From a virus (lineage: Duplodnaviria; Caudoviricetes), in IMG/VR virus record IMGVR_UViG_3300027374_000478, positions 32,001 through 96,000 of that record: a DNA stretch of 64,000 nucleotides; one strand, given 5' to 3'. The position numbers and the translations under genes are program-made. Of the stretch, positions 35,457 to 59,483 are shown in pieces; the stretch's first letter is position 1, and every line of letters begins with the position of its first letter. A model generated the notes under the pieces. That model ran no database searches. It saw only the letters and a program-made list of their open reading frames with translations, and was not told the origin of the DNA.

Positions 35457-35521
35457 TCATTGAAAAGTCTCTTTTGTGGGCATGGATAAGTAATAAAAAA
35501 AGAATATAGAATTGTGGAGGT

Positions 35522-35875
35522 ATGACAATGAAAAATTTAATTGTAAAAGGCGAATACAATCCAGAAGTAAAAACGATGTATTATTACATTGAACCTGTAA
35601 CAGTTCATAAGTTGACAGCAACAACAGAAGAAAATAACAAAGCAACCTTAAAGGATTTTTATACAGCCGTTGAATGGTTGTTAAGTCGTGGATATGATGA
35701 ATATCACGAAGAATACAGTAACACCATAAATCCAGCACAACAAAATATATTTACTGCTTTGCGGTCTTATAGAGTAATACGGAATGGACACTACAAGTCA
35801 GTAAAGATTTTTCAAAGGGCTTTTGGAGGTTGTGTTATATCTGAATGCAACTTGCAGAATGAAACAAGCATGTAA
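35522..35875 (+). CDS. hypothetical early protein
   Basis: GGAGG SD; bounded by palindromes 35461/35880. Confidence 0.7.
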   Translation: MTMKNLIVKGEYNPEVKTMYYYIEPVTVHKLTATTEENNKATLKDFYTAVEWLLSRGYDEYHEEYSNTINPAQQNIFTALRSYRVIRNGHYKSVKIFQRAFGGCVISECNLQNETSM

Positions 35876-35902
35876 TCAATAAAACAATTATTTGAAAGGA
35901 AA

Positions 35903-36145
35903 ATGGTCATGAATAAAGCTATTGAAAAAATTAATAAATTCCTCAAAGCAACAACTAAAACGTTGGAATTGCGCTTTGATGATGGAATGTTTTTGCAACT
36001 TAAGAAACATGTCAAAAATGGAAAACATTTTCTTGAAGTCCATACATCCGGATATGATGGAACGTTTGAAATCACAGAAGCATTAGAGTGGATTAATTGG
36101 ACACTGTATGATTACTCGGCTAATGGATTTTTAAGAAATTTTTAA
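35903..36145 (+). CDS. hypothetical early protein
   Basis: Bounded by palindromes 35880/36149. Confidence 0.7.
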   Translation: MVMNKAIEKINKFLKATTKTLELRFDDGMFLQLKKHVKNGKHFLEVHTSGYDGTFEITEALEWINWTLYDYSANGFLRNF

Positions 36146-36164
36146 CAATAAAAGGGATATTTAA

Positions 36165-36194
36165 AGGCAGATGGAAAATAAAACCGTCTGCCTT
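36165..36194 (+). terminator. hairpin AGGCAGATGG/CCGTCTGCCT
   Basis: Inverted repeat immediately upstream of the twister. Confidence 0.45.
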
Positions 36195-36195
36195 G

Positions 36196-36270
36196 CTTGT
36201 TATAATGCAGCCTGAAAGCCTGATCAACTTTCAGACAGTCCCAAGCCTGTAAAATGCAGAGGGTAACAAG
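36196..36270 (+). ncRNA. twister ribozyme (type P1)
   Basis: P1 CTTGTTA/TAACAAG; TAA-TGCA-GC; P3 CTGAAAG/CTTTCAG; CAG-TCCCAAGC-CTG; TGCA-GAGGG; cleavage T36203/A36204. Confidence 0.92.
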
Positions 36271-36321
36271 AAATTAACAGAGAAATAGTTATTGATACAT
36301 AGATAATCAAAGAAAGGTTAA

Positions 36322-38040: not shown

Positions 38041-39690
38041 ATGGAGGAAATGATAATGTTACCAAAAGAGTTTTATCCTACACCACAAAATATTATTGAC
38101 AAGATGCTTTTTGATTTAGATTTTACAATGATAAAAAGTATTTTGGAACCATCGGCGGGTAAGGGAGATATAGTTGAGGCATTAAAGAAGAAAGAAGGAA
38201 ACCATAATAAATATTATGGCAAACAATACTATCAGTTTGATATTGATTGTATAGAAGCTGATCAGAATCTGCAGCATATTCTTAAAGGGAAAAATTTCCG
38301 TGTTGTTTATAATGATTTTCTTACATATAACACGATGAAGGAATACGATCTAATTATTATGAATCCGCCTTTTTCTAACGGTTGCAAACATCTTTTAAAG
38401 GCTTTAGAAATGCAACAAAGAAATGGCGGTGCGGTTGTGTGTCTTCTCAATGCGGAAACTTTAAAAAATCTATGTACAAATGATAGGCAGTATTTACAGC
38501 GTAAACTCACAGAATATAACGCAAAAATTGAGTTTATACAAAATGCTTTTCTGGATGCGGAACGGAAAACGGCGGTTGAAATTGCGCTTGTAAAGGTTCA
38601 GCTTCCAGAGGTGCAAAGAGAATCTTTTATATTGGAAGGATTAAGAGAAGCAAAAGATCAAAAAGAATTTCAGGCAGAGGAAAGCACAAAACTAATTGAT
38701 AGTGATTTTTTCAAGGCTATTGTAAAACAATATCAGTTAGAAGTGGAAGCAGGAATAAAATTGATTAAAGAATATTATGCAATGCAGCCGTTTATTTTGT
38801 CACAGTTTGGAAAAGACGAAAAGACAGGGGAAACGATACAAAAAGGCGGCTGTATTATCTCCATGACTTGTAGTAAAAATGGGCTTTCTGTTAATGAATA
38901 TATAAAAATGGTGCGGAGTAAATATTGGAATGCACTTTTTGAAAATAAAAGATTTATAGGGCAGCTTACAAATAATCTGCAAAGAGATTTTTATAATAAA
39001 GTGGAAGAATTAAGTAACTATGATTTTTCACTTTATAATATCTACCAGTTAAAAATTGATATACAGAAAAAAGTTGTTAAAGGAATAGAGGATACCATAA
39101 TAGATCTTTTTGATGAATTAAGTTATAAATACCATTGGCTTGATGAAACGTCAAAAAACATTCACTATTACAATGGATGGAAAACAAACAAGGGATGGAT
39201 AATCAATAAAAAAGTGATTATTCCTTTAAATGGTTTTTATGACCTTAATTATTCATGGGGAGGATTCAGACCGTCAAGGCATGATGTTGTAAGTAAATTA
39301 CAGGATATAGAAAAATGTTTTAACTATCTTGATGGAGGGCTAACAGAAGCGGTTGATCTGGAAGAATCCCTAAAGTTTGCAGAGGAATACGGAGAGACAA
39401 AGAATATACAGTTAAAGTATTTTACTGTCACATTCTACAAAAAAGGTACATGTCATATTGTATTTAACAATGACGAGTTACTGAAAAAATTTAATATATT
39501 TGGTTCTCAGCACAAAGGATGGTTGCCACCTTCCTACGGAAAGAAGGATTATAAAGATATGACAGCAGAAGAAAAAGCAGTTGTAAATGAGTTTGAAGGA
39601 GAAAAAGAGTATAGCAAAGTTATTTCTAATAAAGAGTATTACTTGTTTGATGGAAATAATCTGAATTTACTGGAAGAGAAAACGGCATAA
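38041..39690 (+). CDS. DNA adenine methyltransferase with DUF4942 domain
   Basis: EFYPTP, ILEPSAGKG, IIMNPPF; C-terminal YF.VTFYKKGTCHI.F. Confidence 0.88.
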   Translation: MEEMIMLPKEFYPTPQNIIDKMLFDLDFTMIKSILEPSAGKGDIVEALKKKEGNHNKYYGKQYYQFDIDCIEADQNLQHILKGKNFRVVYNDFLTYNTMKEYDLIIMNPPFSNGCKHLLKALEMQQRNGGAVVCLLNAETLKNLCTNDRQYLQRKLTEYNAKIEFIQNAFLDAERKTAVEIALVKVQLPEVQRESFILEGLREAKDQKEFQAEESTKLIDSDFFKAIVKQYQLEVEAGIKLIKEYYAMQPFILSQFGKDEKTGETIQKGGCIISMTCSKNGLSVNEYIKMVRSKYWNALFENKRFIGQLTNNLQRDFYNKVEELSNYDFSLYNIYQLKIDIQKKVVKGIEDTIIDLFDELSYKYHWLDETSKNIHYYNGWKTNKGWIINKKVIIPLNGFYDLNYSWGGFRPSRHDVVSKLQDIEKCFNYLDGGLTEAVDLEESLKFAEEYGETKNIQLKYFTVTFYKKGTCHIVFNNDELLKKFNIFGSQHKGWLPPSYGKKDYKDMTAEEKAVVNEFEGEKEYSKVISNKEYYLFDGNNLNLLEEKTA

Positions 39691-40104: not shown

Positions 40105-40257
40105 ATGATAACTAATATATGGTGTTCTTGGAAAGAATTTGATGAATACGAGCTAGATAAGAAATACAAACTTGTAGATTGTGGAATGAGCAAAAAACAC
40201 TTAGGCTATAAGTTGCTGCGAGATATGGAGAGAAATATCAATGTATACGTAAGATAA
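40105..40257 (+). CDS. small hypothetical protein (50 aa)
   Basis: GGAGG SD; its TAA is the first 3 nt of palindrome 40255. Confidence 0.6.
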   Translation: MITNIWCSWKEFDEYELDKKYKLVDCGMSKKHLGYKLLRDMERNINVYVR

Positions 40258-40283
40258 ATCGTGTATTTCATTGGACAAATAAA

Positions 40284-41119: not shown

Positions 41120-41147
41120 AATACCCATGAAACTACTGTTTTAAGAT

Positions 41148-41348
41148 ATGGAGGAAAGAAAAATGACAAGTTTTGAATTAATGAGAATAACTAGAAATAC
41201 ATTAAACCCTATTGGTAAATTGATTTATGATTATTTCAGAAAAACGGAAAATAGAAGAGTGTGTTTAACAAATGCGTTAGACGCACAAGATTGTTTTTTG
41301 ACTATTCAAGAAGCGAAATCGTGGATTACTAGACATAGTGCGCAATAA
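41148..41348 (+). CDS. hypothetical protein
   Basis: ORF after palindrome 41128; true start likely 41163. Confidence 0.6.
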   Translation: MEERKMTSFELMRITRNTLNPIGKLIYDYFRKTENRRVCLTNALDAQDCFLTIQEAKSWITRHSAQ

Positions 41349-41505
41349 TTTCAAATTGCGTCTTACAAGCCTATTTAATGCCTTAAATCATATATATGTA
41401 CGTTGCGTTAAGTCCTTAAATAAGGCAAATAAATAGTATAAAAATAGGAAATAATTTTGATTTATTGGATAATATGTGATATGATAAATTTAAAAAGAAA
41501 CGAAT

Positions 41506-41766
41506 ATGAAATTTATGACAAATTTAGAGATTTTAATGATGGATAAATGCACAAAAACTGAAGCGGAAAAGCATTTAAAGAATGGAACGACTGTATTTGA
41601 GGGTGAGGATTTCGAGAAGCATTTTAATGATTATATGGACGAGTGGGATATTGATGAGGAAGACAGAGCAGAATATAAGTCAATGATTGATGATAAGAAA
41701 CCTGTTACCGATTGGGGAATTGTGGAGCATGACGGCATAACATGGTATATCGCGTATGTTTTATAA
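41506..41766 (+). CDS. hypothetical acidic protein
   Basis: 86 aa ORF followed by a terminator-like hairpin. Confidence 0.65.
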   Translation: MKFMTNLEILMMDKCTKTEAEKHLKNGTTVFEGEDFEKHFNDYMDEWDIDEEDRAEYKSMIDDKKPVTDWGIVEHDGITWYIAYVL

Positions 41767-41867
41767 ATAATTAAACAGCATAGAAATAGAAGTAATAAGC
41801 AAGTGACAAGTGGGAATGTTGCTTGCTTTTATTATGGGAAAATTCAAAGAAAAATAGAAGAGGGCTT

Positions 41868-42092
41868 ATGCAACAGTTAAAAACAGAAAATTGTATTATA
41901 TGTGGTCAAAAAGCAAAATATTGAAAAGGTTATGTCAAAGGATTATATAAATATGCTCTTGGATATTCTGAAAGAAAAGTAATTGCTGGATTTTGCAAAA
42001 ATCATAAAGAACACGAGAGCAATAATAGTGGATGCTATGGAGAATATGATTCTGAAAAAATGGGAAGATGTATTCCATTATTTAATAGGTAA
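41868..42092 (+). pseudogene. Cys-rich small gene with in-frame TGA
   Basis: MQQLKTENCIICGQKAKY*KGYV...; TGA 41922-24; ends flush against palindrome 42093. Confidence 0.55.
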
Positions 42093-42122
42093 TGAAAAAT
42101 CGTTTCAAGATGGGAGGATATA

Positions 42123-42341
42123 ATGAAAAAATTTAAAATATATATACAGACATGGCTTGATGGTAAACAGGTCAGAAGCATAAAAGATGTACCACCTGAA
42201 ACAATATGGGAATGTGTTTACATTTACAATTCCATTATACAGAAAGAAAAGCCGTCATTTATCAATGGAAAAGTAAAAGAAATTTTAGATAAATGTGGAA
42301 TTAATACGGTAACAGATGGAATCGGATGGAGGATTGTATAA
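42123..42341 (+). CDS. hypothetical protein
   Basis: GGAGG SD. Confidence 0.65.
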   Translation: MKKFKIYIQTWLDGKQVRSIKDVPPETIWECVYIYNSIIQKEKPSFINGKVKEILDKCGINTVTDGIGWRIV

Positions 42342-42597
42342 TGCAAAATTTAGGATTATTTCAGCAAAAGCAGTATATCAGATGGTAGCTGGAAATGAAT
42401 ATATAGAGTATTCAGAGAGATGTTTATTAGACAATTTCATATTTTAGGATAGTCAGACACAACAATATTTCTTGTGTTTAGTCCATTCCCTTACAACATG
42501 GACGGCTTGTTATGAGGTATTTGCAGAAGGTGGAAACGGCACGGAAATATTCGATATGTGGGATAAAATGATGGAAAATAGGGTTTGTTTAGCGTGA
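42334..42597 (+). pseudogene. small gene with in-frame TAG
   Basis: Frame open either side of TAG 42445-47. Confidence 0.45.
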
Positions 42598-42702
42598 TAC
42601 GGCGATTTATAACCAATTAGAAGGCACTAACGAATATTTCCGTTAATGCCTTTTATAGTGGCTATAAAGATGGAATAAATGGAGAAGTAGAGAGTAGAAA
42701 GG

Positions 42703-43239
42703 ATGGTTGATATTATGGCAAACAAAACATTATTAAAGAGATTTACGGAGCTTGCAAACAATAGAAAAGCGGAAATTGTAGAACTACAACATATGTATTT
42801 ATTGAAACAGATTGAAAATGAAATCGTTCAGGAGAGGTTTAAGGAAGTGTATAACAAAGTTTTAGCTGAGAATCCCTTTTATTCTGACCGTGATTGTAAA
42901 CTGCTCAAGAACGGAAACAAAATTTCTAAAGGTGATAGGATTCTTTCAAGTGATGATCAATGGTGTATGAGTACAGAAGATTATGACAGATTCTTGGAAA
43001 TTTGCAGAAAGGAAAATTTTGTTGCTGGTCTTACATATGAAGATGGAAGATATACTGAGGAAACTAATACAGAAAATCAGTTAAAAGATATTAAAGAGAA
43101 GTTGATCCGTTTGTCAGTAGAAATTTTACCTGATGATTTTCCAAATAAGAAGTTGCTTGAAGAAGCTATTGAGTACAGAGGACATAATTCATATAAGACA
43201 AGAGAAACACTTTTTGAGTTGGTTATGAAGCTGAAATAG
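42703..43239 (+). CDS. hypothetical protein
   Basis: 178 aa ORF. Confidence 0.7.
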   Translation: MVDIMANKTLLKRFTELANNRKAEIVELQHMYLLKQIENEIVQERFKEVYNKVLAENPFYSDRDCKLLKNGNKISKGDRILSSDDQWCMSTEDYDRFLEICRKENFVAGLTYEDGRYTEETNTENQLKDIKEKLIRLSVEILPDDFPNKKLLEEAIEYRGHNSYKTRETLFELVMKLK

Positions 43240-43256
43240 GGAGGATAGCATTTAAT

Positions 43257-43463
43257 ATGAAGCGGAGGACATATAATAACGTTTTAAAAGCTGTGAGATT
43301 GATTCAGAAAAAGGGATATGAAAAGAAAGAATCTTTAGAAATGGCAATTAAAATATTTGATGAAATGGAATTACTTAATAATGGAATGTCTATTGAATGG
43401 AGAATTAACCAGATTGTAGATAAAGAAACATGGAAACGAGAAGCAGAACTGTATAAGTCTTGA
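43257..43463 (+). CDS. hypothetical protein
   Basis: GGAGG SD; TGA stop is part of palindrome 43461. Confidence 0.7.
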   Translation: MKRRTYNNVLKAVRLIQKKGYEKKESLEMAIKIFDEMELLNNGMSIEWRINQIVDKETWKREAELYKS

Positions 43464-43902
43464 AACAATGGTTTCAAGTACATAGAATGGAGGATTTTTG
43501 AGAGTGATCAGAAACAAGATAAAATTTGTCAGAAATAATTATTAGATATATGGAGGTATGGTTATGGTTGATAATTTAGGACGATGGACGGAAGAAAAAG
43601 ATTATAATACATATCCAAAAGAAAAATGGTGCGATATGGATTATATGGCAGCATGGATTGTCTGAATTTGATTTTGAACCATAAAAGGCAACGAAATAAG
43701 GTTAAAATGATTTTAAATTAAAAGGAGAATAAAAATGAAGATTGTTATTTGTTACGCAATACACGAAAAGAAAATTGTAAGTTATGATACATTTGCAAGT
43801 GAAAACGATGCTTTTATTTTTATAAAAAATGATGCACAAAAAGTATATAATGAAGAAATTTACAATGGAAATTATTAATATTGCATAAAGGAGATAAAAA
43901 AT

Positions 43903-44061
43903 ATGACAAAAAATGAAGAAATAATATGGGAAGATCTGAAAGAAAAAGCCAGAATGGCTGGTTATATAATTTTTAATCGTAAAAATTTAGAAACAGAAAG
44001 GGAATATGATGAAGCTGTAGAAAACCTAGTAAAATTTGAAATTGAGCATGGAATATTATAA
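43903..44061 (+). CDS. small hypothetical protein
   Basis: AAGGAG SD, 52 aa. Confidence 0.5.
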   Translation: MTKNEEIIWEDLKEKARMAGYIIFNRKNLETEREYDEAVENLVKFEIEHGIL

Positions 44062-44088
44062 TTTGCTAATAAAGGAGAGGTAAAGACA

Positions 44089-44256
44089 ATGATAGAAATT
44101 GAAAAAGAAGATAAAGTTATTTTTAGTGGTTCTAAAGATGAGTGCGTTGAATTTTTGAAAAAACTTGGAATTATTAATAAAAATGAAACTGATATACGTT
44201 TGCTTACAATGGCAGCACTGGCTACAAAATTTGGTTTATCTATGTTTAGTCGATAA
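44089..44256 (+). CDS. small hypothetical protein
   Basis: GAGG SD, 55 aa. Confidence 0.5.
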   Translation: MIEIEKEDKVIFSGSKDECVEFLKKLGIINKNETDIRLLTMAALATKFGLSMFSR

Positions 44257-49812: not shown

Positions 49813-50856
49813 ATGAAGATAATTAAAGGTGCGGATCGTGGAAGAACAGAGTGGACAGCACGGAAACTTGTTGAATTAGTGGAAGATGGAACAGTGAATT
49901 TTAACATTGATATTCAAAGGGGTTATGTGTGGAAAGATAATGACAAGAAATCTGCTTTGATTCGCTCTTTGATATTGGATAGACATGTTCCTCCTCTGTA
50001 TTTCAATAAAGTGGAAGATGTTTATGAGGGCGAAGATGGGAAACAGCGGACATTAACTATCATCAAATTCTTGAATAATGAGTTTGAATTGAGCGGACTT
50101 GAAGAATTTACAGTTATAAATGATGAGAGCGAAACAGAGGAAATTGACATCAACGGGTACAAGTTTAGTGATCTTCCTGAATGTTTCCAGAACGCTATTA
50201 AGGAGTATTCATTCACAATTTGCTATACGGACAATGCGAATCAGGAAGAACAGGCGGATACATTCTATAATCTGAATAATGGTCAGGCATTAAACGCTGC
50301 TACGATGAACCGTGTAAAAGCAAAATCAAAGGAACAGATTATCAATCTTGGGAAGCATAAGTTGTTTGCTGATGCTTTAAGTCAGACAGCTTTAGATGGA
50401 CATGTGAATGAAGATATGGTGGCCAAAGCACATGCAATCTTAAATGACAGTGAAGTTTCTACAGATGCAAAATGGATTCGTCCTTACATGAGAATGGCAG
50501 ATATTACAAAGGATGATGAATTCTTACTTAGCGAAGTATTCGACCGTATTTACAATATACATGCCATGATAGAGGATAAGAAAATTGCAAAGAGGATTTA
50601 TGCCAGGACGCATATGATTAGTATTGTGCCGATTGTTGCAGAGTCGCTTAATGACGGATATTCTGACAAACAAATGATGGAATGGTTTGTAAATTTCTTT
50701 AGCGGAAAGAAATCTGCTACAACTTCTAAAGCATATAATGACGCTGCCGGAAGAGGAACTGGAAAGAATTCTGCTGTTATGAAGAGGGTGGAGGAAATCA
50801 AAAAGGATTATGATAGGTATTTTGGAAATACGAAATCTTTGGCCGAAGCAAGTTGA
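49813..50856 (+). CDS. DUF262 (GmrS/ParB-like) domain protein
   Basis: IQRGYVW, DGKQR, FYNLNNG; paralog of 46737. Confidence 0.88.
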   Translation: MKIIKGADRGRTEWTARKLVELVEDGTVNFNIDIQRGYVWKDNDKKSALIRSLILDRHVPPLYFNKVEDVYEGEDGKQRTLTIIKFLNNEFELSGLEEFTVINDESETEEIDINGYKFSDLPECFQNAIKEYSFTICYTDNANQEEQADTFYNLNNGQALNAATMNRVKAKSKEQIINLGKHKLFADALSQTALDGHVNEDMVAKAHAILNDSEVSTDAKWIRPYMRMADITKDDEFLLSEVFDRIYNIHAMIEDKKIAKRIYARTHMISIVPIVAESLNDGYSDKQMMEWFVNFFSGKKSATTSKAYNDAAGRGTGKNSAVMKRVEEIKKDYDRYFGNTKSLAEAS

Positions 50857-50972
50857 AAGTGTATATGATTTGATATAGATTGTTTCATGCTGTATATGCA
50901 TGGAATCGTGTTCTATACTTCAACACGAAAAAGAGAAGTAGTTTATATAAAACGATTTGGAGGATAAAATAT

Positions 50973-51536
50973 ATGGCATATATTTTGCAAAAAGACGCTT
51001 ATTATTGCTATCTGGATGGCAAACATACAATATGTAAAACACAAAACCTAAATTTGGCAACAAGGTTTGAAACACAAGGTAGTGCCAGAGCTATGCTAAA
51101 TAAAGCGACAAAGAAATTGAAAGACTATAAGATTGTTGATATGGAAACCATGCAACAGGTAGGAGATATTCATAAAATTAAGCGCAAACAATTTTCGTCA
51201 GAGGAAAGAATTAAAATTTATAATAAGGGTAAAGGGAGATGTGCAATATGCGGAAAATTTATTCCATATGACAGTTTTACAGTCGATCATATTGTTCCTT
51301 TAGCAAAAGGTGGAACTAATGCAATGGATAATCTTCAAGTTGCCTGTAGCGTATGTAATCTTATTAAACAGGATATTTTACCAGAAGATTTAATGAAGAA
51401 ATTAACGGAAATTATCTTATATCAAATGAAGAAATCATATGATGATGACTTATGGAAAAAATTATATTACATAAGGCGATTGAAACAGAAAAATAGATTT
51501 TTAATAGTAATGAGAAGAATTTTAAAACAGACTTGA
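50973..51536 (+). CDS. HNH endonuclease (McrA-like)
   Basis: CAICG...TVDHIVPLAKGGTN..DNLQVACSVCN. Confidence 0.9.
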   Translation: MAYILQKDAYYCYLDGKHTICKTQNLNLATRFETQGSARAMLNKATKKLKDYKIVDMETMQQVGDIHKIKRKQFSSEERIKIYNKGKGRCAICGKFIPYDSFTVDHIVPLAKGGTNAMDNLQVACSVCNLIKQDILPEDLMKKLTEIILYQMKKSYDDDLWKKLYYIRRLKQKNRFLIVMRRILKQT

Positions 51537-51571
51537 AATCATCGTTTCAACTTGTGATACATAGTTGCACA

Positions 51572-51618
51572 GAATATTGTACAAAATATTGACAATACTA
51601 AGAATATAGAATATACTA
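51572..51618 (+). promoter_or_regulatory. TA promoter with TGTACA operator
   Basis: TTGACA...TATACT; AATATTGTACAAAATATT near-palindrome typical of YefM operators. Confidence 0.6.
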
Positions 51619-51639
51619 TATTCAAAGGAGTGTGATTGT

Positions 51640-51891
51640 ATGATAGCAACAAATTTTTCAAATGTAAGGAATAACTTCAAAGAAGTTTGCGATCGGGTTG
51701 TACATGATTCTGATATCGCAATAATTACGAGAAAAAACGATGAAAATGTTGTGCTTATGTCTCAGGCACAGTATGATAATCTGATGGAAAATCTTCATAT
51801 AAGGGAAAGTAAAGCGAATTATGAGTGGTTGAAAGAGTCTATCAAGCAAGCTGAAGATGGAAAACTTGTAAGTTTTGATGTGGAGGATTAG
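51640..51891 (+). CDS. yefM: YefM/Phd antitoxin
   Basis: NFSNVRNNFKEVCDRV...IITRK..ENVVLMS. Confidence 0.9.
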   Translation: MIATNFSNVRNNFKEVCDRVVHDSDIAIITRKNDENVVLMSQAQYDNLMENLHIRESKANYEWLKESIKQAEDGKLVSFDVED

Positions 51892-51894
51892 TCT

Positions 51895-52149
51895 ATGAAT
51901 GTATCTTTCACGGAAAATGCTTGGGAGGATTATCTTTATTGGCAGAAGATGGACAAGAAAATTGTAAAAAGAATAAATGAATTGATTAAAGATATAAAGA
52001 GAAATCCATTTGAGGGACTTGGAAAGCCAGAACCGCTAAAATACGATTTAGCTGGAAAGTGGAGTAGAAGAATAACGGATGAACATAGGTTAGTGTATCA
52101 AGTGGAAGGAAATAATTTGATTGTGTATACATGTAGATATCATTATTGA
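51895..52149 (+). CDS. yoeB: YoeB/Txe toxin
   Basis: AWEDYLYWQ...GLGKPEPLKYDLAGKWSRRITDEHRLVY...CRYHY. Confidence 0.95.
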   Translation: MNVSFTENAWEDYLYWQKMDKKIVKRINELIKDIKRNPFEGLGKPEPLKYDLAGKWSRRITDEHRLVYQVEGNNLIVYTCRYHY

Positions 52150-52249
52150 TAGTTTAGAGTGTGTTGAGAAGCATTGACGGAAACGTTAGTGCTTTTCTTT
52201 TTGAATGTAGAAGTATAATGTAGAAAAACATAGAAAGGATGGATTTATT

Positions 52250-53245
52250 ATGTGTTATAAGGATGAAATTCAGAAGAAAAATGCGGAAAAATTACAAAGG
52301 AAAATGAATGAAGACAATATACCAATGTTCATACAGTTATATCTTTTAAACAGAAAAAGTAAATTAGGTGCATTAAATTATTATTCTGTTATTAAAAATT
52401 TGTTACGATGGATGATAGATAAAAGGCTGATTCAAAAGAATAGTATATCAGAAATTACACCGCCAGATATGGAATATATAGAGTCAGCTTATATAAATAT
52501 GTATTTAGAAGAAAAACAAAATGAAGGAATATCGCCGACAACATTGAACACAAGGAAAAACATTTTTAGAAGTTTTTGGAAGTCTATGGTTAATTCTCCT
52601 AGTGTACCTGTAAAATGTAACATTATTGAAGATGTAGCATATGAAGGTTTGGATTCTGGATATAATCGCTATGTTAAAATGCCATCAAAGGACGATCTGG
52701 AAGAAATGAGGAAAAATATTAATCAGAAAAAGAAGAATGACCGTTTTGTAAGGGACAGGAACCTGCTTATACTTACAATCCTGATGAATACAGGTTTGAG
52801 GGCATGTGAACTTATAGAATTAGAATTTTCTTCATTATTCTTAGATGGAAACGAAATAGAAAAAACGCCACATATCAGAGTAATGGGAAAAGGGGTATAT
52901 TATTCTGCACTAGGAAGAAATATTTTGCTTAATCTTACCGCAAAAGATGCATTTTTGAAATGGCTTGAAGTCAGAAATACAATAAATGTCATAGATGACA
53001 GAGCTATTTTCTTAAATAAGACAGGGAAAAGAATGCAAGAGTCTGACTTGAGAGCAATGTTTTTTGTATATAGTGGTAAAAAACTTACTCCACATATGAT
53101 CAGGCATTGGTATGGAACTGTAATAACAGAAAAATATGGAGTTGCATTCGCACAGCAACAGTTAGGGCATAAGAATGTGAATGTCACAGTAAATACTTAT
53201 GTAGATGGGGGATATGGTATTAGAGAAAAACTAGCACTAGAATAG
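52250..53245 (+). CDS. tyrosine recombinase inside the palindrome array
   Basis: TGLRACEL (R), MGKG (K), HMIRH (HxxR), QLGH, NTY (Y); catalytic set intact. Confidence 0.9.
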   Translation: MCYKDEIQKKNAEKLQRKMNEDNIPMFIQLYLLNRKSKLGALNYYSVIKNLLRWMIDKRLIQKNSISEITPPDMEYIESAYINMYLEEKQNEGISPTTLNTRKNIFRSFWKSMVNSPSVPVKCNIIEDVAYEGLDSGYNRYVKMPSKDDLEEMRKNINQKKKNDRFVRDRNLLILTILMNTGLRACELIELEFSSLFLDGNEIEKTPHIRVMGKGVYYSALGRNILLNLTAKDAFLKWLEVRNTINVIDDRAIFLNKTGKRMQESDLRAMFFVYSGKKLTPHMIRHWYGTVITEKYGVAFAQQQLGHKNVNVTVNTYVDGGYGIREKLALE

Positions 53246-53282
53246 AAAATGTATGGTATAATGGGAAGTGGGTGAAACATAG

Positions 53283-53513
53283 ATGAATATTGCAACATAT
53301 CAAACAACACCAGAAAAGCATGGAGATGGAACATTTTTCTTTACAGATTGTGGACACAATATGTATTCTATAAGAGATATTATGGCGTATCATGGTTGCT
53401 TGTGTCCTGGCTGTTTCTGAAAAGGGATATATACAACATTGTATATTAGAGGTTCCGAAGAAGCAAATAAGTATTGGAATGAGAAACGCAAGAAAATGGA
53501 AATGAATGATTGA
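53283..53513 (+). pseudogene. decayed small Cys-containing gene
   Basis: In-frame TGA at 53418 plus an apparent frameshift; ends inside palindrome 53503. Confidence 0.45.
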
Positions 53514-53537
53514 TTTTATTGGAACGGAGGAAATATT

Positions 53538-54233
53538 ATGAATGATTATAAAGTAGAAAATACGCAATTTGGAACAAAAACAAGTCATCCGAGTTACGGA
53601 ACGTTGGCTTTTGGTAGAAGAACTGGTGGGAGAGGTACGTCTTTATTTGGAAGTAGTATAGAACATAGAGACACAATTGCAATGACTTTGTATCATGCAG
53701 ATATTACAAGAGGATTGCATTATGATTCTATTTATGGCGATAAAAAAATTGTAGAAGTAGAAATGAGTTATTCACAATTTGCTGAAGCTATTACATCTAT
53801 GAATATGGGGAGTGGTGTTCCTGTTACTGTACGTTGGACAGAAAGAGATGGACGTATACCAGATTGTGATTTTATTAGTAAGAGAGAACAATTTGCTGAT
53901 GAGTTTAAAGAAAAAAGAAAAGAAGTGACTATGGAATCACAGCAAATTATTAAAGATGTAACAGAATTATTTAATCAAAAGAAAACACTTACTAAATCAG
54001 ATAAGCAGGAAATTCTCAGTAAATTGAATAAACTGAGTATGGAAATCGGGTGTAATATGGATTTTATTGCAGATCAATTTAATGAACAAATGGATAAGAC
54101 GGTAATGGAAGCAAAAGGTGAGATTGAATCTTTCTGCCAGAATAAAATTAATTCCATTGCAAGTGCAGCTTTAGTAGAACATAGAGATGATTTTTTAAAG
54201 TTGGAAAATCCTGTTGATATTAACATGGAATAA
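53538..54233 (+). CDS. conserved hypothetical phage protein
   Basis: 231 aa; bounded by palindromes 53503/54239. Confidence 0.75.
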   Translation: MNDYKVENTQFGTKTSHPSYGTLAFGRRTGGRGTSLFGSSIEHRDTIAMTLYHADITRGLHYDSIYGDKKIVEVEMSYSQFAEAITSMNMGSGVPVTVRWTERDGRIPDCDFISKREQFADEFKEKRKEVTMESQQIIKDVTELFNQKKTLTKSDKQEILSKLNKLSMEIGCNMDFIADQFNEQMDKTVMEAKGEIESFCQNKINSIASAALVEHRDDFLKLENPVDINME

Positions 54234-54270
54234 GCAGTTGAATACTTGATTTTATTGGAGGATTAAAACT

Positions 54271-54621
54271 ATGAGTAAATTAAGAGTGTGGTGGATTCCG
54301 CAAGTGGGAATAAAGGAGACTTTCTATATACCAGTTAATAGTGTAGAAGAAGGTAAAAAGATGATAGATGTATTGGCAGCTTATGATGCGTTTCAGTATC
54401 AAAATAGAGTTAAGCCAGATTATTGTAATGTTGGTGGTTTGCAGATGTTTGACGAATTGGAAGGCGAGTGGAATGATTGGTATTTAGAAACAGGTGATGA
54501 TTATTTTGATGACGTAGATAAGTATTGTGAATCTGATAGTTGTGCTCAGAAGGAAGAGTTAGAATTATTTAGTAATAGTGTTATGGGACAGGTTGATTGG
54601 AAAGAAGTTATGACACGATGA
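54271..54621 (+). CDS. P22 gp17-like (superinfection exclusion-related) protein
   Basis: KLRVWWIPQV...F.IPV.SVEEG....DVLAAYD.FQY.NRVKPDYCNVGGLQ. Confidence 0.75.
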   Translation: MSKLRVWWIPQVGIKETFYIPVNSVEEGKKMIDVLAAYDAFQYQNRVKPDYCNVGGLQMFDELEGEWNDWYLETGDDYFDDVDKYCESDSCAQKEELELFSNSVMGQVDWKEVMTR

Positions 54622-54655
54622 ATGTCTGATTTTATTTAGTAGTATGGAGGTATAT

Positions 54656-54874
54656 ATGGTAGACAACAATAATGTTTTTTATAGTAAAACTCATGAAGAA
54701 TTAATCTTATTATTTGAGCAGTTTTTAGAATCTGAGAAAACGGGTTCAATTCCAAATAATGAGTTAGGAAAAATGCGTGATGCGTACTTTGATAAATTGG
54801 GTGTTGGATGGCATACAGTATGTATGATTGATTTATTGAGAACAATTGCTTTTAGATGGGCAGAAAATATTTAG
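54656..54874 (+). CDS. hypothetical protein
   Basis: GGAGG SD. Confidence 0.6.
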   Translation: MVDNNNVFYSKTHEELILLFEQFLESEKTGSIPNNELGKMRDAYFDKLGVGWHTVCMIDLLRTIAFRWAENI

Positions 54875-54887
54875 GAGATTACACGAT

Positions 54888-55049
54888 ATGATCACTTGGA
54901 AATGTTTATATAAATTAGACAAAGAAGAATTGGCAGGAATAGTAAATGATATCAAGAACGGTGAAAGTTATACTGTTTCTGGATGGGAAGATACATATCC
55001 AACAGATAATGATATTTTGAAATATGCTACCGGATGTGGTGTGAGGTGA
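54888..55049 (+). CDS. small hypothetical protein
   Basis: AGGAG SD. Confidence 0.5.
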   Translation: MITWKCLYKLDKEELAGIVNDIKNGESYTVSGWEDTYPTDNDILKYATGCGVR

Positions 55050-55053
55050 TTGT

Positions 55054-55281
55054 ATGAAATGTGAATGGAGATATTTTATAGTTCTCAATAATGATAAAGA
55101 GGATATTGTAGAGGGTAGAGAAGTTCCTGGTGATGGTATTCCGGTGTGTAATGATTTTATGGTGGCAAAATATTTTCTTAGTACAGAAGAGTTAGTAGAA
55201 TGGACAAAGGAAAATACGTCATTGGTTTTGGAAGATGGAGAATATCACATAGAAGGGCATTATTTACCTTGTAATGTATAG
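55054..55281 (+). CDS. hypothetical protein
   Basis: GAGGTGA SD. Confidence 0.6.
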   Translation: MKCEWRYFIVLNNDKEDIVEGREVPGDGIPVCNDFMVAKYFLSTEELVEWTKENTSLVLEDGEYHIEGHYLPCNV

Positions 55282-55297
55282 ATTGGAGGACATAAGC

Positions 55298-55678
55298 ATG
55301 GATAAAAAATTCAAACATGGCGATAGAGTTTATCACAGAAATTTAAAACAGTATGGTACTTTTGTTGATTATGCATGGGAAACTGAAGAAGAATGTGATG
55401 TTGAATTTGAAGCCGAAGATGGATATATAGAACAGAAACATGTCAGTGTGAATTGGTTGGAACCAGCACAGAAGACATATAATAAGAAAGTTATGGAAGC
55501 CCTTAGGCAGCGTAGAGGATTAAAACCTGGCGATGCGTCACAAGATAGTGATATTATGAGTATGGCGAAACAGGATGTGTTTAATGAATATTGTGAGTGG
55601 GAAGGATTGCTTGGTGGGTACGGATACTCATTGCTAAATGTTGTGGAAAATATTTATGATATAAATTTGCAACAGTAA
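55298..55678 (+). CDS. hypothetical protein (SH3/KOW-like N-terminus)
   Basis: FKHGDRVYH...YGTFV. Confidence 0.6.
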   Translation: MDKKFKHGDRVYHRNLKQYGTFVDYAWETEEECDVEFEAEDGYIEQKHVSVNWLEPAQKTYNKKVMEALRQRRGLKPGDASQDSDIMSMAKQDVFNEYCEWEGLLGGYGYSLLNVVENIYDINLQQ

Positions 55679-55699
55679 ATTTTTAGATTGGAGGATATC

Positions 55700-56068
55700 A
55701 TGCTTGATGTTGGATTAGATAATGGTAAATATACTTCGTGTTTAAATTGTAACGAGAAGCAAGATGAATATAGAAAAATATATTCAATTACTATAGGAAA
55801 TTTGAATCCATTAAAAATAAATTTATGTACCGAATGCATGGGCGTGTTGGTTTCTAAAATGACATATGCGTTTAATATGGAATTTCCAAATAATGATAAG
55901 ACAGATTACGATACTGAATTGGAAATTGAAAGCAAATTAAGAATTTTACTTAATAAGAAAATTTCTGGAACTTGGAATGAAGATTGTCAAAAGGAATTAG
56001 ATTCTCTTAACGAAGAAAAAATGTGCAATTCTCATAGATTGCTTTATAGAGATGTTTGTAATTGGTAA
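55700..56068 (+). CDS. Zn-finger hypothetical protein
   Basis: CLNC...LCTEC. Confidence 0.6.
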   Translation: MLDVGLDNGKYTSCLNCNEKQDEYRKIYSITIGNLNPLKINLCTECMGVLVSKMTYAFNMEFPNNDKTDYDTELEIESKLRILLNKKISGTWNEDCQKELDSLNEEKMCNSHRLLYRDVCNW

Positions 56069-56118
56069 ATGATAGTCTTGAAATCCGGTTTTCATGGCAA
56101 AAAATTGGAGGTAAACAG

Positions 56119-56430
56119 ATGGAACCATACGCAATTATATATGAAACTAGAAACATAACACAATTAGAGATAGAAAGACATCTTGAAGATTATTTGATGG
56201 AATGTGAAAAGGATTGTGTGCCAGGAGATATAATTGATAATAAAATCATAATGGGATGTGGAAGGATAGAAGATGAAGGTTTTAAAAAAGGACATAAAGT
56301 TATTGCAATTCCATTGGATTTAATACAAGACATAGAAACGAGTAATCAGGATTTGGAGGAGTATGGATTTGAAGCAATTAATATTATTCCCTTTCGTGGC
56401 AAGAGATATAGAAATAGGAATCCATATTAA
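56119..56430 (+). CDS. hypothetical protein
   Basis: GGAGG SD after palindrome 56079. Confidence 0.6.
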   Translation: MEPYAIIYETRNITQLEIERHLEDYLMECEKDCVPGDIIDNKIIMGCGRIEDEGFKKGHKVIAIPLDLIQDIETSNQDLEEYGFEAINIIPFRGKRYRNRNPY

Positions 56431-56438
56431 TTAGGCAG

Positions 56439-56867
56439 GTGACGAATATGAAAATTATCCGCTATTCAGTAGTAGCATTTGAACCAAAGGAACAGACACA
56501 TCATGCAAAACATATCCAGTATCATCTATATGATTTTGATATAGAAAAATTTCCAGAATTTGCGAGGTGGCAGATTCAGTGTATCCATGAGCAAAAGGTG
56601 GTTTTCTATAAAGAACACTTGGAAGATTTTAAACGTGGTATTTGGTGTTTTGTGGATGGACATAAGAGCAATCAATCATTGAATCATCTGAAGAAGAAAG
56701 TTCCATGTTGGGAAGCTGATGTTCCTGATGACATTGAGTGTTATGATTGCAATTGGGAGAAGTTGATAACTATTTCTGACTCTACTGTATTATGGGGAGG
56801 GTGCTATATTCCTGAGAGGGAAATGTGGAAAATCAGAAATGTTAGGAGAAGAAGGAAAACTGCATAA
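56439..56867 (+). CDS. hypothetical protein
   Basis: 142 aa ORF. Confidence 0.65.
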   Translation: MTNMKIIRYSVVAFEPKEQTHHAKHIQYHLYDFDIEKFPEFARWQIQCIHEQKVVFYKEHLEDFKRGIWCFVDGHKSNQSLNHLKKKVPCWEADVPDDIECYDCNWEKLITISDSTVLWGGCYIPEREMWKIRNVRRRRKTA

Positions 56868-56890
56868 TTATAATATTGGAGGTTAATAAC

Positions 56891-57046
56891 ATGAAAACAA
56901 TTTGGTATGCTGTAGTTGATTCAATAGAAGTTCCAGATGATATGAGCGATCATGAAATCGATAATAAAATCAATAAAATAGCTGATGGTAAGGAAGTTAT
57001 GTGGTCAGAAAAAGACGATCTTATTGATATTCGTCAATGGGATTAA
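56891..57046 (+). CDS. small hypothetical protein (paralog of 57350)
   Basis: IEVPDDMSDHEI...GKEVMW. Confidence 0.6.
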   Translation: MKTIWYAVVDSIEVPDDMSDHEIDNKINKIADGKEVMWSEKDDLIDIRQWD

Positions 57047-57084
57047 AAATGCCAATAGAATGTTGCTTTCAATAGGAGGATAAA

Positions 57085-57318
57085 ATGGATATAGATAATA
57101 TTATGGACATTGAAGTTTTGCGAGAAGCTGCCAAATATGGTAGAGTAAAGATGAAAAAAGATTGTTATTCAACTGACGGGCATATATTTATATTTAAAAA
57201 AGATATGTGGTATCATGTGGATCAAGATGAATCTGGCGTTACAATCACATCAGATGATAATGAACATTACTGTGATTTATCTTATGAAAAATCTGATAGA
57301 TATTTGTATAAAGATTAA
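57085..57318 (+). CDS. hypothetical protein
   Basis: Bounded by palindromes 57056/57320. Confidence 0.65.
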   Translation: MDIDNIMDIEVLREAAKYGRVKMKKDCYSTDGHIFIFKKDMWYHVDQDESGVTITSDDNEHYCDLSYEKSDRYLYKD

Positions 57319-57349
57319 ATGAAATGCTGTTTCTAAGTGGAGGTTTTGA

Positions 57350-57517
57350 ATGTTTAATAAAAATGGGAAAAGAGTAATTCAAGTTGCGATTAAACATATT
57401 ATTGAATTGCCAGGAAATATTTCAGATGATGAAATTGAGAAGTTTTTAGAAGAAAAGTATAAGGGAAAAGAATATCAATGGTGTGACGGAGATCAAGATG
57501 TTTTTGGTGATTTTTAG
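57350..57517 (+). CDS. small hypothetical protein (paralog of 56891)
   Basis: IELPGNISDDEI...GKEYQW; bounded by 57320/57521. Confidence 0.6.
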   Translation: MFNKNGKRVIQVAIKHIIELPGNISDDEIEKFLEEKYKGKEYQWCDGDQDVFGDF

Positions 57518-57555
57518 CAATGAAAGGCTGGATTCAAGGGTATTTAGGAGGGATA

Positions 57556-57810
57556 TTGTTGAAATCTGAAGGCGTAAAAGATGTATTCAAATGGTTAGAT
57601 AAAAAATGCAAAGAACAAAAAAATGTTGTTGAAAAAGCTGAACAGAATTTTCAAGATACGAAACGAAGTTGTTATTTTGAAGATGAACAATGTTTGATAG
57701 ATTCAGCGGAAATTGAATTGGAACGAGCGAAGGAAAGACTAAATGCGTATGTAGATATAAAGATTAGTGTAGAGAAATATATGCGAAAATTAAGACATCA
57801 AGGAGAGTAG
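57556..57810 (+). CDS. coiled-coil hypothetical protein
   Basis: Bounded by 57521/57816. Confidence 0.6.
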   Translation: MLKSEGVKDVFKWLDKKCKEQKNVVEKAEQNFQDTKRSCYFEDEQCLIDSAEIELERAKERLNAYVDIKISVEKYMRKLRHQGE

Positions 57811-57853
57811 AGCATTGAAATTCTAGTTTTGTGGTATAGGTAGGGATAATATT

Positions 57854-58387
57854 ATGGAGAAGATAGCGAGGTTTAAGGATATTCCGCAGTTTACGACAAG
57901 TGGTAATTGGCAGTGCGATTTTGAACCTGTTGGTTTGATAAAATTTATAGATGAACAAGTATCCGAAGAAGGATTACAACTTAATCCTAAGTTTCAAAGA
58001 GGACACGTCTGGTCAAGTAAACAGCAAATAGCATACATTGAATATTTTTTGAAAGGTGGAAAATCTGGAACAGTAATTTATTTAAATAAACCTGATTGGA
58101 ATATTAATATGCCAGTTGGCGAATATAATGAATTTGTATGTGTTGATGGTTTGCAACGTATTACAGCATTTCGGAGATTTATAAACAATGAAATTAAAAT
58201 ATTTGATTCGTATTTTAGAGAATATACTGATAAATTGCGAATGAAATTTACAATTAAGGTTAATATAAATGATTTGAAATCAGAAAAAGAAGTGTTACAA
58301 TGGTATGTGGATATGAATGCTGGCGGAACACCACATACAAGTGGTGAGATTGAAAAAGTAAGAAAAATGATTCAAGAACTTGGATAA
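57854..58387 (+). CDS. stand-alone DUF262 domain protein
   Basis: LNPKFQRGHVW...VDGLQR...MNAGGTP. Confidence 0.85.
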   Translation: MEKIARFKDIPQFTTSGNWQCDFEPVGLIKFIDEQVSEEGLQLNPKFQRGHVWSSKQQIAYIEYFLKGGKSGTVIYLNKPDWNINMPVGEYNEFVCVDGLQRITAFRRFINNEIKIFDSYFREYTDKLRMKFTIKVNINDLKSEKEVLQWYVDMNAGGTPHTSGEIEKVRKMIQELG

Positions 58388-58412
58388 TTAATGATATATG
58401 CGAGGTGCAGAT

Positions 58413-59153
58413 ATGAATAATCTTACGAATAAAGAGTTTTTATATTTCCTTTTAGAAAGATTCAAAATAGAAAGACAAAAATTCGATAGATCTGGTGTGT
58501 ACGCATATACACAACGTTTACTTGCTTATAACTCAAATAAGATTGAGGGCAGTACACTTACTGAGGAACAAACGTCTTCGTTATTTGACAACGGCACTTT
58601 GCCAAAATCAGATGATTATTATAGGGCAAAAGATATAGAAGAAATGAATGGTCATTTTCTCATGTTCAATAAAATGTTGGATACACTGGATGAACCGTTA
58701 TCACAGGAATTGATAAAACAATTTCATTATGAATTAAAGTCAGGTGTATTTGAGGATCGTGCTAACGGATATGCAATCGGTGATTATAAGCAGCGTCCTA
58801 ATATGATTGGAATGTATCAAACTGTAAGACCAGAAGATATTGCCCAAGAAATGTATTTACTAATGGACTGGTATGATGGTCAGGCGATAAATATTTCTGT
58901 ATTAGCCGAGTTCCATGCAAGATACGAGAGCATTCATCCTTTCCAAGACGGGAACGGTAGGACAGGAAGATTGATTCTCTTTAGGGAATGCTTGAAAAAT
59001 GGTGTTGTGCCGGTTGTGATTGAAGATGCAAATAGAAATGAGTATCTGGAAGCGTTGAAAGAATATAGAGAAGAAAAAAGTCTGGATAAATTGATTACAC
59101 TTTTTGAAAAAGAACAGCAGTTTTATTTTGAGAAGTGCAAATATTTTATGTAG
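58413..59153 (+). CDS. Fic family protein
   Basis: HPFQDGNGRTGR; N-terminal SNKIEG autoinhibitory-type motif. Confidence 0.92.
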   Translation: MNNLTNKEFLYFLLERFKIERQKFDRSGVYAYTQRLLAYNSNKIEGSTLTEEQTSSLFDNGTLPKSDDYYRAKDIEEMNGHFLMFNKMLDTLDEPLSQELIKQFHYELKSGVFEDRANGYAIGDYKQRPNMIGMYQTVRPEDIAQEMYLLMDWYDGQAINISVLAEFHARYESIHPFQDGNGRTGRLILFRECLKNGVVPVVIEDANRNEYLEALKEYREEKSLDKLITLFEKEQQFYFEKCKYFM

Positions 59154-59188
59154 GATTTGGATGTTGTTCAGCTTCAATGGGAGGTAAA

Positions 59189-59452
59189 ATGATAAAGTAT
59201 TCTGTTATTTTTAAAGATTATAAGATTGATAAAATTGAACCATATGAAATTCTTTTAAAACGATATTCATCATTAAAGGAATATGTGGAACATGAAGTTG
59301 GTGAAAATAGTTGGAATTATGTTTCCAAAATATATGCTATGCATGAAAGCATAGTTGGTATTTTTAAAACATATGAAGTGATAAATTGGGAAACTTTAGA
59401 GGAAGGTAATAGCTATGTTTATACTGATATGTATGGGAATTTGATTAAATAA
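59189..59452 (+). CDS. hypothetical protein
   Basis: GGAGG SD; TAA is part of palindrome 59450. Confidence 0.6.
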   Translation: MIKYSVIFKDYKIDKIEPYEILLKRYSSLKEYVEHEVGENSWNYVSKIYAMHESIVGIFKTYEVINWETLEEGNSYVYTDMYGNLIK

Positions 59453-59483
59453 AAGTGAAATTTTAAGTGTGGAGGAATTATAT

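Follow-up and report, generated by a model that had tools for sequence, protein, structure and literature searches.

Ordered, non-repeating 6-bp cores at the gene junctions of a large mouse-gut prophage coincide with cassette breakpoints between relatives

In the dif modules of Acinetobacter plasmids (pdif modules), recombination requires 6-bp spacers that are identical or nearly identical, the replacement of a single module leaves the flanking spacers as they were, and the proposed route runs through the formation of a cointegrate and its resolution at sites with the same spacer. The recombinase XerH confines its base contacts to the inner 5 bp of each arm of its site, difH (arms AGTTATGAAAA and, on the top strand, TTTTCAAACT; difH reads ...TGAAAA-N6-TTTTCA...), and barely touches the 6-bp central region. 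T4-type phages carry promoter early stem-loops (PeSLs), short repeated intergenic elements that flank small accessory open reading frames (ORFs) in hyperplastic regions and form the breakpoints of insertions, deletions and replacements between close relatives. In phage SPbeta, MrpR, an integrase-fold repressor that has lost catalytic Arg and His residues, acts on a repeated 15-bp element (SPBRE) in about ten promoter regions. Here we analyse a window of 64,000 nucleotides, bases 32001-96000 of the 159,091-bp IMG/VR provirus record IMGVR_UViG_3300027374_000478 (92% complete), in which a 16-bp site, made of two short inverted arms around a 6-bp core, recurs between the genes of the accessory region.

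The genes of the record lie on the − strand in its first ~64 kb and on the + strand beyond ~65 kb; the − strand arm appears to hold the virion genes. The DNA has a G+C content of ~31% and strong Shine-Dalgarno sequences (SDs; GGAGG), and the ~160-kb provirus is a member of a large and abundant family of Firmicutes prophages of the mouse gut; the same DNA is present in mouse-gut metagenomes of several studies. A megablast search of the GenBank phage collection with a 10.5-kb query found no near relative. A 162.6-kb provirus (G001) was found via the recombinase gene described below, its own recombinase being 86% identical, and a 231-aa gene at 53538-54233 retrieved 80 loci on viral contigs of 100-210 kb, all of which carry the same motif at their gene junctions. 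We compared the genome of the record (G000) with the related genomes G001, G002, G003 and G004, of which G002 and G003 were retrieved in part; the relatives' loci are numbered with an L (L004, L018, L089 and so on; G003 corresponds to L103-L109). A search with the 84-aa gene of a 98%-identical block (57518-57838) matched G001 alone. The material from sequencing runs consisted of assembled contigs, some of them from RNA libraries that overlap parts of the region; it served for variant joints only, and these were counted just as corroboration, since in many of them a side measures no more than 20-31 nt.

The 16-bp site has 5-bp inverted arms, TGAAA and TTTCA, each tolerating one weak variant, around the 6-bp core. 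The strict pattern TRAAA-N6-TTTYA occurs 11 times in the window, where 3.98 matches are expected and a count of 11 is attained by 1 of 100 shuffles; nine of the 11 matches fall within 41128-59465. A position weight matrix (PWM) learned by expectation maximisation from + strand spacers of 30-140 nt gave the consensus (A)(A/T) T (G/A) A A (A/T) N6 (T/A) T T (C/T) A (A/T)(G/T) G, and the motif was found in ~28-31 of the 49 spacers. At a score of at least 12, 45 sites fall in intergenic DNA of the + arm, where dinucleotide shuffles of that DNA give 2.3 ± 1.6; coding DNA holds 2, and the whole − strand (structural) arm 6. Over the + strand accessory arm of the 159-kb provirus this amounts to ~45-60 copies where ~2 are expected. 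Nearly all of them sit between a stop codon and the next SD, and the + strand junctions are of two kinds, tight ones (<~30 nt) and spacers of 37-56 nt that consist of stop codon, motif and SD. A preliminary description of the window, made from its sequence, had proposed this motif and a PWM test of its enrichment, and on that test the motif is real. The description was also right in counting ~25 sites within 35461-59465, in seeing single units of an SD and an ORF bracketed by two sites, and in reading the left arm as the stop codon of the upstream gene in seven cases, since the ORFs do end at 40257, 43463, 46377, 47786, 51536, 54621 and 59452. The copy at 35461 is weak, and one at 49300 lies inside a gene. 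Its end of the array, at 59465, was set too early. The array extends to the end of the window and then to ~152 kb of the 159-kb record, with all sites co-oriented and ~60 of them per genome. Past the window end, a 16-kb stretch at 94640-110966 (genome-offset coordinates) has almost no sites; 81% of it is covered by homology to G001, at ~93% identity.

Within a genome the cores are distinct. G000, G001, G002 and G003 have 60, 61, 73 and 57 sites, and the earlier statement that every core differs can be extended to the three whole genomes G000, G001 and G002, in which no core is repeated; there is one duplicate in G003, and among the 514 sites of 79 loci a single core occurs twice in one locus. 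Between genomes the cores are shared and ordered. G000 and G001 have 41 cores in common and a longest collinear chain of 41; for G000 and G002 both numbers are 43, and for G001 and G002 both are 44, whereas random cores would give ~2 shared and a shuffled order a chain of ~10. G003 has 1-4 cores in common with each of these three genomes (longest chain 1-3), which is the number expected by chance; it is another lineage, with the same arms and a different set of cores, and the family seems to be split into groups whose core sets differ. Over the 79 loci, 968 of 984 pairs of shared cores stand in the same order.

The genes around the shared cores are often not shared. Homology by blastn or tblastx within 400 nt on either side is absent at 21 of the 41, 21 of the 43 and 23 of the 44 shared-core sites of the three comparisons above, the flanking proteins are unrelated and of unequal length at 23 of 31 sites, and 20 of 40 inter-site segments have zero nucleotide homology between G000 and G001 and unequal lengths. 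Among the 79 loci, 837 of 1398 pairs with a common core are alike in neither flank. In 98 of 128 shared-core pairs of the genomes, 1-4 of the 10 arm positions differ, and a partner with one mismatch in the core was found in the matching interval for just two sites of G000. Taking 635 site instances together, identical 16-mers including the core recur in up to 11 contexts with both flanks unrelated; 34 cores occur in at least three fully independent contexts, where position-specific composition predicts 6.2, and the family holds at least 256 different cores. The core is the best conserved part of the locus, above the arms and the flanking genes, and among relatives of one lineage the same cores keep the same order though the genes on both sides are unrelated. 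The N6 stretch, previously regarded as freely variable, is thus conserved and collinear across relatives.

The sites concentrate in the variable accessory parts of the genomes, and the breakpoints of gene gain, loss and replacement between relatives coincide with them, as the preliminary description had anticipated. G000 and G001 are highly mosaic. Blocks shared by the two start 1-4 nt before a site at 48365, 51533, 53500, 57518, 64720, 82741 and 116074, and they end in or just past the right arm at 45235, 54252, 56095, 57838 and 83784. The first difference between the two genomes falls at arm position 15 at the 3' ends of blocks and at left-arm position 2 or 5 at the 5' ends, and the core is identical at every block end compared. 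Metagenome contigs from other mouse-gut samples have joints at these same site edges, namely at 43460, 43487, 45218, 45798/46374, 51531-51532, 53519, 56074, 56099/57054 and 57829; at site 51534, contigs X9 and X15 join 50952/50957 to 51531/51532.

We mapped the crossovers in site-anchored pairs that have one flank in common, across the 79 loci. In the 116 pairs that have only the left flank in common, which represent at least 44 independent events, sharing extends to a position between 13 and 47, with a peak at 14-15, and never stops before 13. In the 42 pairs that have only the right flank in common, from at least 34 events, sharing begins between −12 and +4 in 41 pairs, with a peak at 0-1; the one exception is at +31. 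Since the core is kept in both classes, exchange partners always carry the same core. Sites that travelled with either the upstream or the downstream gene can be excluded, because one of the two classes would then lose the core, and so can the use of the 5-bp arms as microhomology between different sites, because the core would then switch sides in about half of the events. By this comparative evidence, the crossovers of at least 78 independent exchanges map within the sites, between about positions 4 and 14, and between partners with the same core only.

The accessory arm encodes, within the array, a candidate enzyme, the Xer-like tyrosine recombinase that starts at 52250. Its best solved relative is XerH (E 2.5e-8), and R184, K214, H282, R285, H307 and Y317, aligned to the active-site motifs of XerH, form a complete R-K-H-R-H/W-Y set that is invariant in 28 distinct homologues (~40% identity); the preliminary description, too, had read this set as intact. 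The protein scores below the NCBIfam cut-offs of the Xer equivalogs (78.9 of 335 bits for XerC, 78.4 of 267 for XerS, 68.1 of 220 for XerA), so that by these models it is Xer-like, yet no member of them. It gave no match to the integron integrase model TIGR02249, to which the product of the second gene, at 14508, matches in part (40 bits against a cut-off of 265), and tblastn of the 52250 protein against the GenBank phage collection returned distant XerC-like matches only. Each of the five genomes examined has 2-4 PF00589 genes, one of them in the accessory arm, and larger PF00589 proteins (409-464 aa) at the record ends of G001, G002 and G004 look like the integrases. Arm variants and recombinase clades gave no signal of co-variation, since every clade has the same arms, and no longer 'master' site was found beside the recombinase genes. 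In many relatives (L025, L040, L042, L057 and others) an XRE-type helix-turn-helix gene, with a protein that begins MVEYIGKKIRTEK, starts inside the recombinase gene, and in these the recombinase may be part of a regulatory module; other relatives have a terminator and a convergent gene after the recombinase.

Arms for binding and a spacer that decides the partner are the defining behaviour of tyrosine-recombinase core sites, and for this reason we infer, with a probability of about 0.55, that a Xer-like tyrosine recombinase encoded by the phage uses the sites as core-type targets and so exchanges cassettes between relatives. Core sites have two inverted arms around an overlap of 6-8 bp, and here 5-bp arms, which behave as independent half-sites, recur at a fixed spacing of 6 bp in ~60 copies; an identical overlap and a crossover inside the site are what the exchanges mapped above display. 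The inverted-arm architecture with its 6-bp spacer, already recognized in the preliminary description, matches in its 5-6-5 form the way XerH reads difH. We further infer an order of candidates in which the 52250 recombinase comes first and the 14508 protein is the alternative. The enzyme would bind the arms, and strand exchange would need identical 6-bp overlap regions. With no core repeated, the sites of a genome would not react with one another and the phage would not delete its own genes, but site i of one phage could recombine with its counterpart, site i, in a relative residing in the same cell. Through a pair of these events the cassette in between would be replaced, irrespective of what it encodes, which would amount to a natural form of heterospecific cassette exchange, and since each event would take place between a stop codon and an SD, no gene would be broken and the incoming gene would stay in the resident operon. 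In recombinase-mediated cassette exchange (RMCE) with lox or FRT sites, the arms are conserved and the spacers incompatible, only like sites recombine, and a cassette is swapped without excision. We would give roughly even odds to the wider proposal that the array is a natural RMCE at the scale of a genome, with ~60 ordered heterospecific addresses per phage, at least 256 orthogonal cores and core sets that act as exchange-compatibility groups. Capture or excision of cassettes within one genome, as first suggested, does not agree with the data: all cores differ, differing cores block site-by-site excision by a tyrosine recombinase, and the evidence is for position-specific exchange between relatives.

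Several observations weigh against a dedicated recombinase. The conserved arms are only 5 bp long and the flanks are weak, and the assignment of an enzyme is drawn from comparison. Recombinase genes are non-orthologous across genomes that share arms and even cores: G002, with 43-44 cores in common with G000 and G001, has a different PF00589 gene at the 52250 position, and for the 14508 type the identity is 63% to the homologue in G003, as opposed to 21-23% for G001 and G002. The 52250 gene follows a toxin-antitoxin (TA) pair, a layout typical of multimer-resolution and maintenance modules, and its product could act at a single site. A site is missing from some module boundaries (54886, 55284-55289, 58428 and that on the left of the HNH gene), and among the conserved linkers there are some that exceed a site in length or contain no strong copy (45178-45235; 46060-46136), from which it follows that other routes of recombination also act. 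Finally, the interval between about positions 4 and 14 fits strand exchange at the core and recombination that needs 11-16 bp of identity alike.

A possible, if doubtful, alternative to the recombinase is short-homology recombination at conserved regulatory linkers, homologous or by copy choice, carried out by host RecA or a phage annealing protein over 16-30 bp of identity; the arms would then be bound by a regulator or serve expression, and the tyrosine recombinases would have other tasks, for example multimer resolution or integration. The swapping of recombinase genes among genomes with the same sites agrees with it, as do the crossover interval, the islands longer than a site (58 nt at 45178-45235, and 28 nt at 43460-43487, which a metagenome contig retains around site 43461 between two joints), the 77-nt linker without a strong site, the leaders, SD included, that different genes sometimes have in common, and the precedent of T4-type phages, which shuffle ORFs via repeated regulatory cassettes. 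Homology alone, however, leaves unexplained why the same inverted 5-bp half-sites stand at a fixed 6-bp spacing and why the core is better conserved than the arms. In many contexts, moreover, the identity is confined to 16 bp, which is short for a RecA-type exchange, and crossovers in the arms between sites with different cores were never seen in at least 78 events.

It is improbable that the sites form an operator or 'stoperator' array, in which a dimeric and possibly integrase-fold repressor would silence or insulate accessory operons and the link with breakpoints would be a by-product of short spacers. MrpR offers a model, being an integrase-fold repressor on a repeated short element, the stoperators of mycobacteriophage L5 reportedly lie in short intergenic gaps at stop codons, and no consensus promoters were found at the sites of 53000-59600, nor is there one in the run of 53.5-59.6 kb. 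The arms, too, behave as two independent protein half-sites on duplex DNA, as for a dimer, 11 bp apart from centre to centre, which is one helical turn. But the spacer of an operator should drift, whereas the cores are unique, collinear, better conserved than anything around them and kept when both neighbouring genes are replaced, so that this alternative, already raised in the preliminary description, fits poorly. The breakpoints lie inside the arms and not merely near them, the 52250 protein keeps all six of the catalytic residues of which MrpR has lost Arg and His, and ~60 gene junctions are occupied instead of the ~10 promoter regions of SPBRE.

Very improbable, finally, is an RNA element, that is, transcribed hairpins acting in the processing, stability or translation of polycistronic early mRNAs. 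It would account for sites that lie only between a stop codon and an SD of the transcribed strand's arm, and for recurrent cores being found in one orientation in 163 contexts against 4 for their reverse complements, a figure confounded by strand composition skew. Pairing of the arms was examined in 223 distinct PWM-defined sites of four genomes. No covariation was detected at any arm pair, Watson-Crick counts equalling the expectation for independence (107 observed against 110.8 expected at positions 2/15), A·C-type combinations are as common as G·U-type ones (50 and 48), and the core positions 6/11, 7/10 and 8/9 have no complementarity. Windows of 24 nt around the sites fold with a mean minimum free energy of −1.5 kcal/mol, against −1.0 in shuffles, and half of the sites, which fold above −1, are essentially unfolded. 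Pairing is therefore not under selection, and an RNA hairpin or a cruciform is ruled out as the selected feature. A sigma-54-like −24/−12 promoter (the GG and GC dinucleotides are missing and the SD is too close), cre/CcpA, Rex, CodY or parS boxes (which differ in spacing or in the order of half-sites) and a methyltransferase target (which leaves the intergenic placement unexplained) were considered and rejected.

The coordinates of the sites and of the recombinase and TA genes are collected in Table 1. The Phd/YoeB pair has its own perfect promoter of the sigma-A type (TTGACA-17-TATACT) and is followed by a terminator. In L004 an identical copy of site 51534 lies directly upstream of the recombinase and the TA module is missing between the two, and for this reason the module looks like an inserted cassette. 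Upstream of that site, G001 and contigs of two runs lack the HNH endonuclease gene at 50880-51536 or have other DNA in its place; the left boundary of the gene is an SD without a site, as expected of a free-standing homing endonuclease. The accessory arm encodes three separate DUF262/GmrSD_N (ParB-like) proteins, at 46713-47786, 49813-50856 and 57854-58387, the last of which is an indel with respect to G001 and to an RNA-library contig. Other cassette genes encode a Fic/Doc-family protein (58398-59153) and a homologue of the superinfection-exclusion protein gp17 (PF17420; 54271-54621). At 38041-39690 there is a 549-aa protein with an N6-adenine methyltransferase-like N-terminus and a DUF4942 domain, and the 561-aa ORF before it matched PHROG families only, and weakly (one DNA methyltransferase, one of unknown function). 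The stop-to-SD linker at 46060-46136 is 84% conserved in G001 with different genes on both sides and, having no strong site, is a second kind of conserved junction. Two perfect TTGACA-17/18-TATAAT promoters, at 60216-60244 and 60985-61014, follow a terminator at 59655-59684; as predicted promoters, they open a new transcription unit past the promoter-poor cassette run.

Table 1. Sites and associated genes, in window coordinates (core sequences are those of the 6-bp centre of each 16-bp site).
Feature	Position	Strand	Remarks
Second Xer-like tyrosine recombinase, 343 aa, alternative candidate	14508-15539	−	Xer models under cut-offs
Weak site copy TGAAAAGTCTCTTTTG	35461-35476	+	PWM 14.0; under threshold in symmetric scan
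Site, core CAATTA	35880-35895	+	Core shared with G001 and G002 in collinear order; both flanks without homology within 400 nt
Site, core TTGTAA	39697-39712	+	Same core in G001, flanks unrelated
Site, core CGTGTA	40255-40270	+	Left arm is stop TAA; 16-mer identical in G001, flanks unrelated
Site, core CTACTG	41128-41143	+	Strict pattern and PWM; without same-core partner in G001
Site, core CAATGG	43461-43476	+	Left arm is stop TGA; same core in G001, flanks unrelated
Site, core TCAGGA	45222-45237	+	Right arm is end of 58-nt conserved linker 45178-45235; joint at 45218
Site, core TCGGAA	45416-45431	+	Same core in G001 and G002, flanks unrelated
Site, core CTCGTA	45780-45795	+	Member of collinear G000-G001 chain; joint 45798 to 46374
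Site, core TTCGCA	46375-46390	+	Left arm is stop TAA; same core in G001 and L018, both neighbour genes different
Site, core GGATTA	47784-47799	+	Left arm is stop TAG; same core in G001 and G002, flanks unrelated
Site, core TGATTG	47987-48002	+	Same core in G002; one-mismatch core in G001
Site, core TTAGAT	48366-48381	+	Left edge is start of 2.6-kb block common with G001
Site, core TCATCG	51534-51549	+	Left arm is stop TGA; left edge is start of shared block
TA cargo between site 51534 and recombinase	51590-52149	+	Pfam: Phd/YefM antitoxin 51640-51891, YoeB toxin 51895-52149
Xer-like tyrosine recombinase, 331 aa, candidate enzyme	52250-53245	+	PF00589 60.5 bits (cut-off 27.1)
Site, core GATTGA	53503-53518	+	Block start; joint at 53519; same core in G001, G002 and L089
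Site, core ACTTGA	54239-54254	+	Block ends in right arm; identical site in L092
Site, core GTCTGA	54619-54634	+	Left arm is stop TGA; same core in G002
Site, core TCCGGT	56079-56094	+	Block ends in right arm; joints 55679 to 56074 and 56099 to 57054
Site, core TGTTGC	57056-57071	+	Same core in G001 and L018, flanks unrelated; joint at 57054
Site, core TGCTGT	57320-57335	+	Same core in G001 and L089, flanks unrelated
Site, core GGCTGG	57521-57536	+	Left end of 98%-identical one-gene block 57518-57838
Site, core TTCTAG	57816-57831	+	Right end of block 57518-57838; joint 57829 to 58431 in RNA-library contig
Site, core GTGAAA	59450-59465	+	Left arm is stop TAA; same core in G001 and G002, both neighbour genes different
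Site, core TTATGG	59857-59872	+	Same core, collinear, in G001

The mosaicism of tailed phages is usually ascribed to illegitimate or homologous recombination plus selection. This family of gut phages carries a built-in, sequence-addressed scaffold that steers exchange to particular places, with cores that outlast the genes they separate. Should a recombinase act on the sites, the dif-module principle would extend from Acinetobacter plasmids to phages, and the circulation of accessory, TA and defence-type genes as single-gene units would be accounted for. Accessory and defence or anti-defence cassettes would be reassorted among co-resident relatives, and compatibility groups for gene flow would be predicted. 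Multiplex cassette exchange, too, would gain a single recombinase with naturally orthogonal spacers by the hundred. Should homologous recombination be the driving process, the scaffold of conserved cores is still a new, quantifiable rule of phage genome architecture.

Full-text literature searches found no description of such an array in phages, and the systems with which it can be compared each match a part of it. The integron logic invoked in the preliminary description has a basis in the mostly promoterless single-gene units between recombination sites and in the tyrosine recombinase within the locus. Integron attC sites, however, are imperfect palindromes of 57-141 bp that are recombined as folded single strands and recognised by structure, and capture takes place at one attI next to intI, whereas the phage sites are 16 bp long, position-specific and free of selection for pairing. 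An IntI-type integrase beside an attI and a Pc was not found here and a single capture site is not evident, and with no attI/attC-type structure and no integron-integrase match the comparison fails. SPBRE with MrpR, which we compared by description, is likewise a repeated short element in a large temperate phage with an integrase-fold protein; SPBRE and the stoperators are transcriptional operators in ~10-30 copies, without a site-specific conserved spacer. PeSLs play the same evolutionary role in large phages. They combine a sigma-70 promoter with a terminator stem-loop, unlike the phage sites, which have neither promoter hexamers nor a stable stem, and their copies are alike and recombine homologously, also within a genome (mini-circles), an exchange that unique cores should prevent.

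Closer likenesses are found among the Xer systems. As in XerH/difH, the layout is 5-6-5 with A-tract arms, and the best solved relative of the candidate enzyme is XerH itself. Xer systems such as XerH/difH and XerS/difSL, in contrast, have one site per replicon and resolve dimers; the arms of difH are 10-11 bp long, with an outer part contacted on the backbone, and their register is one base off (GAAAA-N6 in difH, TGAAA-N6 in the phage). As in pdif modules, many core-type sites with 6-bp spacers bound discrete accessory modules, and replacement keeps the flanking spacers; TA modules, moreover, are a common cargo in Acinetobacter plasmids. A pdif site, on the other hand, has 28 bp with distinct 11-bp XerC and XerD arms, alternates in orientation (C and D modules) and depends on host XerCD, and there are a handful per plasmid, with spacers that repeat within the plasmid and modules that excise in pairs. 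The phage sites have 5-bp arms alike on both sides, are co-oriented and carry ~60 unique, ordered cores, and the phage encodes Xer-like recombinases of its own, so that pdif anatomy was not recovered. The pdif label thus largely fits in logic and not in anatomy (arm length, orientation, host enzymes, copy number). RMCE, too, resembles the array in logic, but it is a laboratory design with 2-3 spacer variants, against ~60 natural ones per genome. We read the array as a system of the Xer-site/dif-module type in a phage, and what is new in it are the ordered, heterospecific cores that run through the whole genome.

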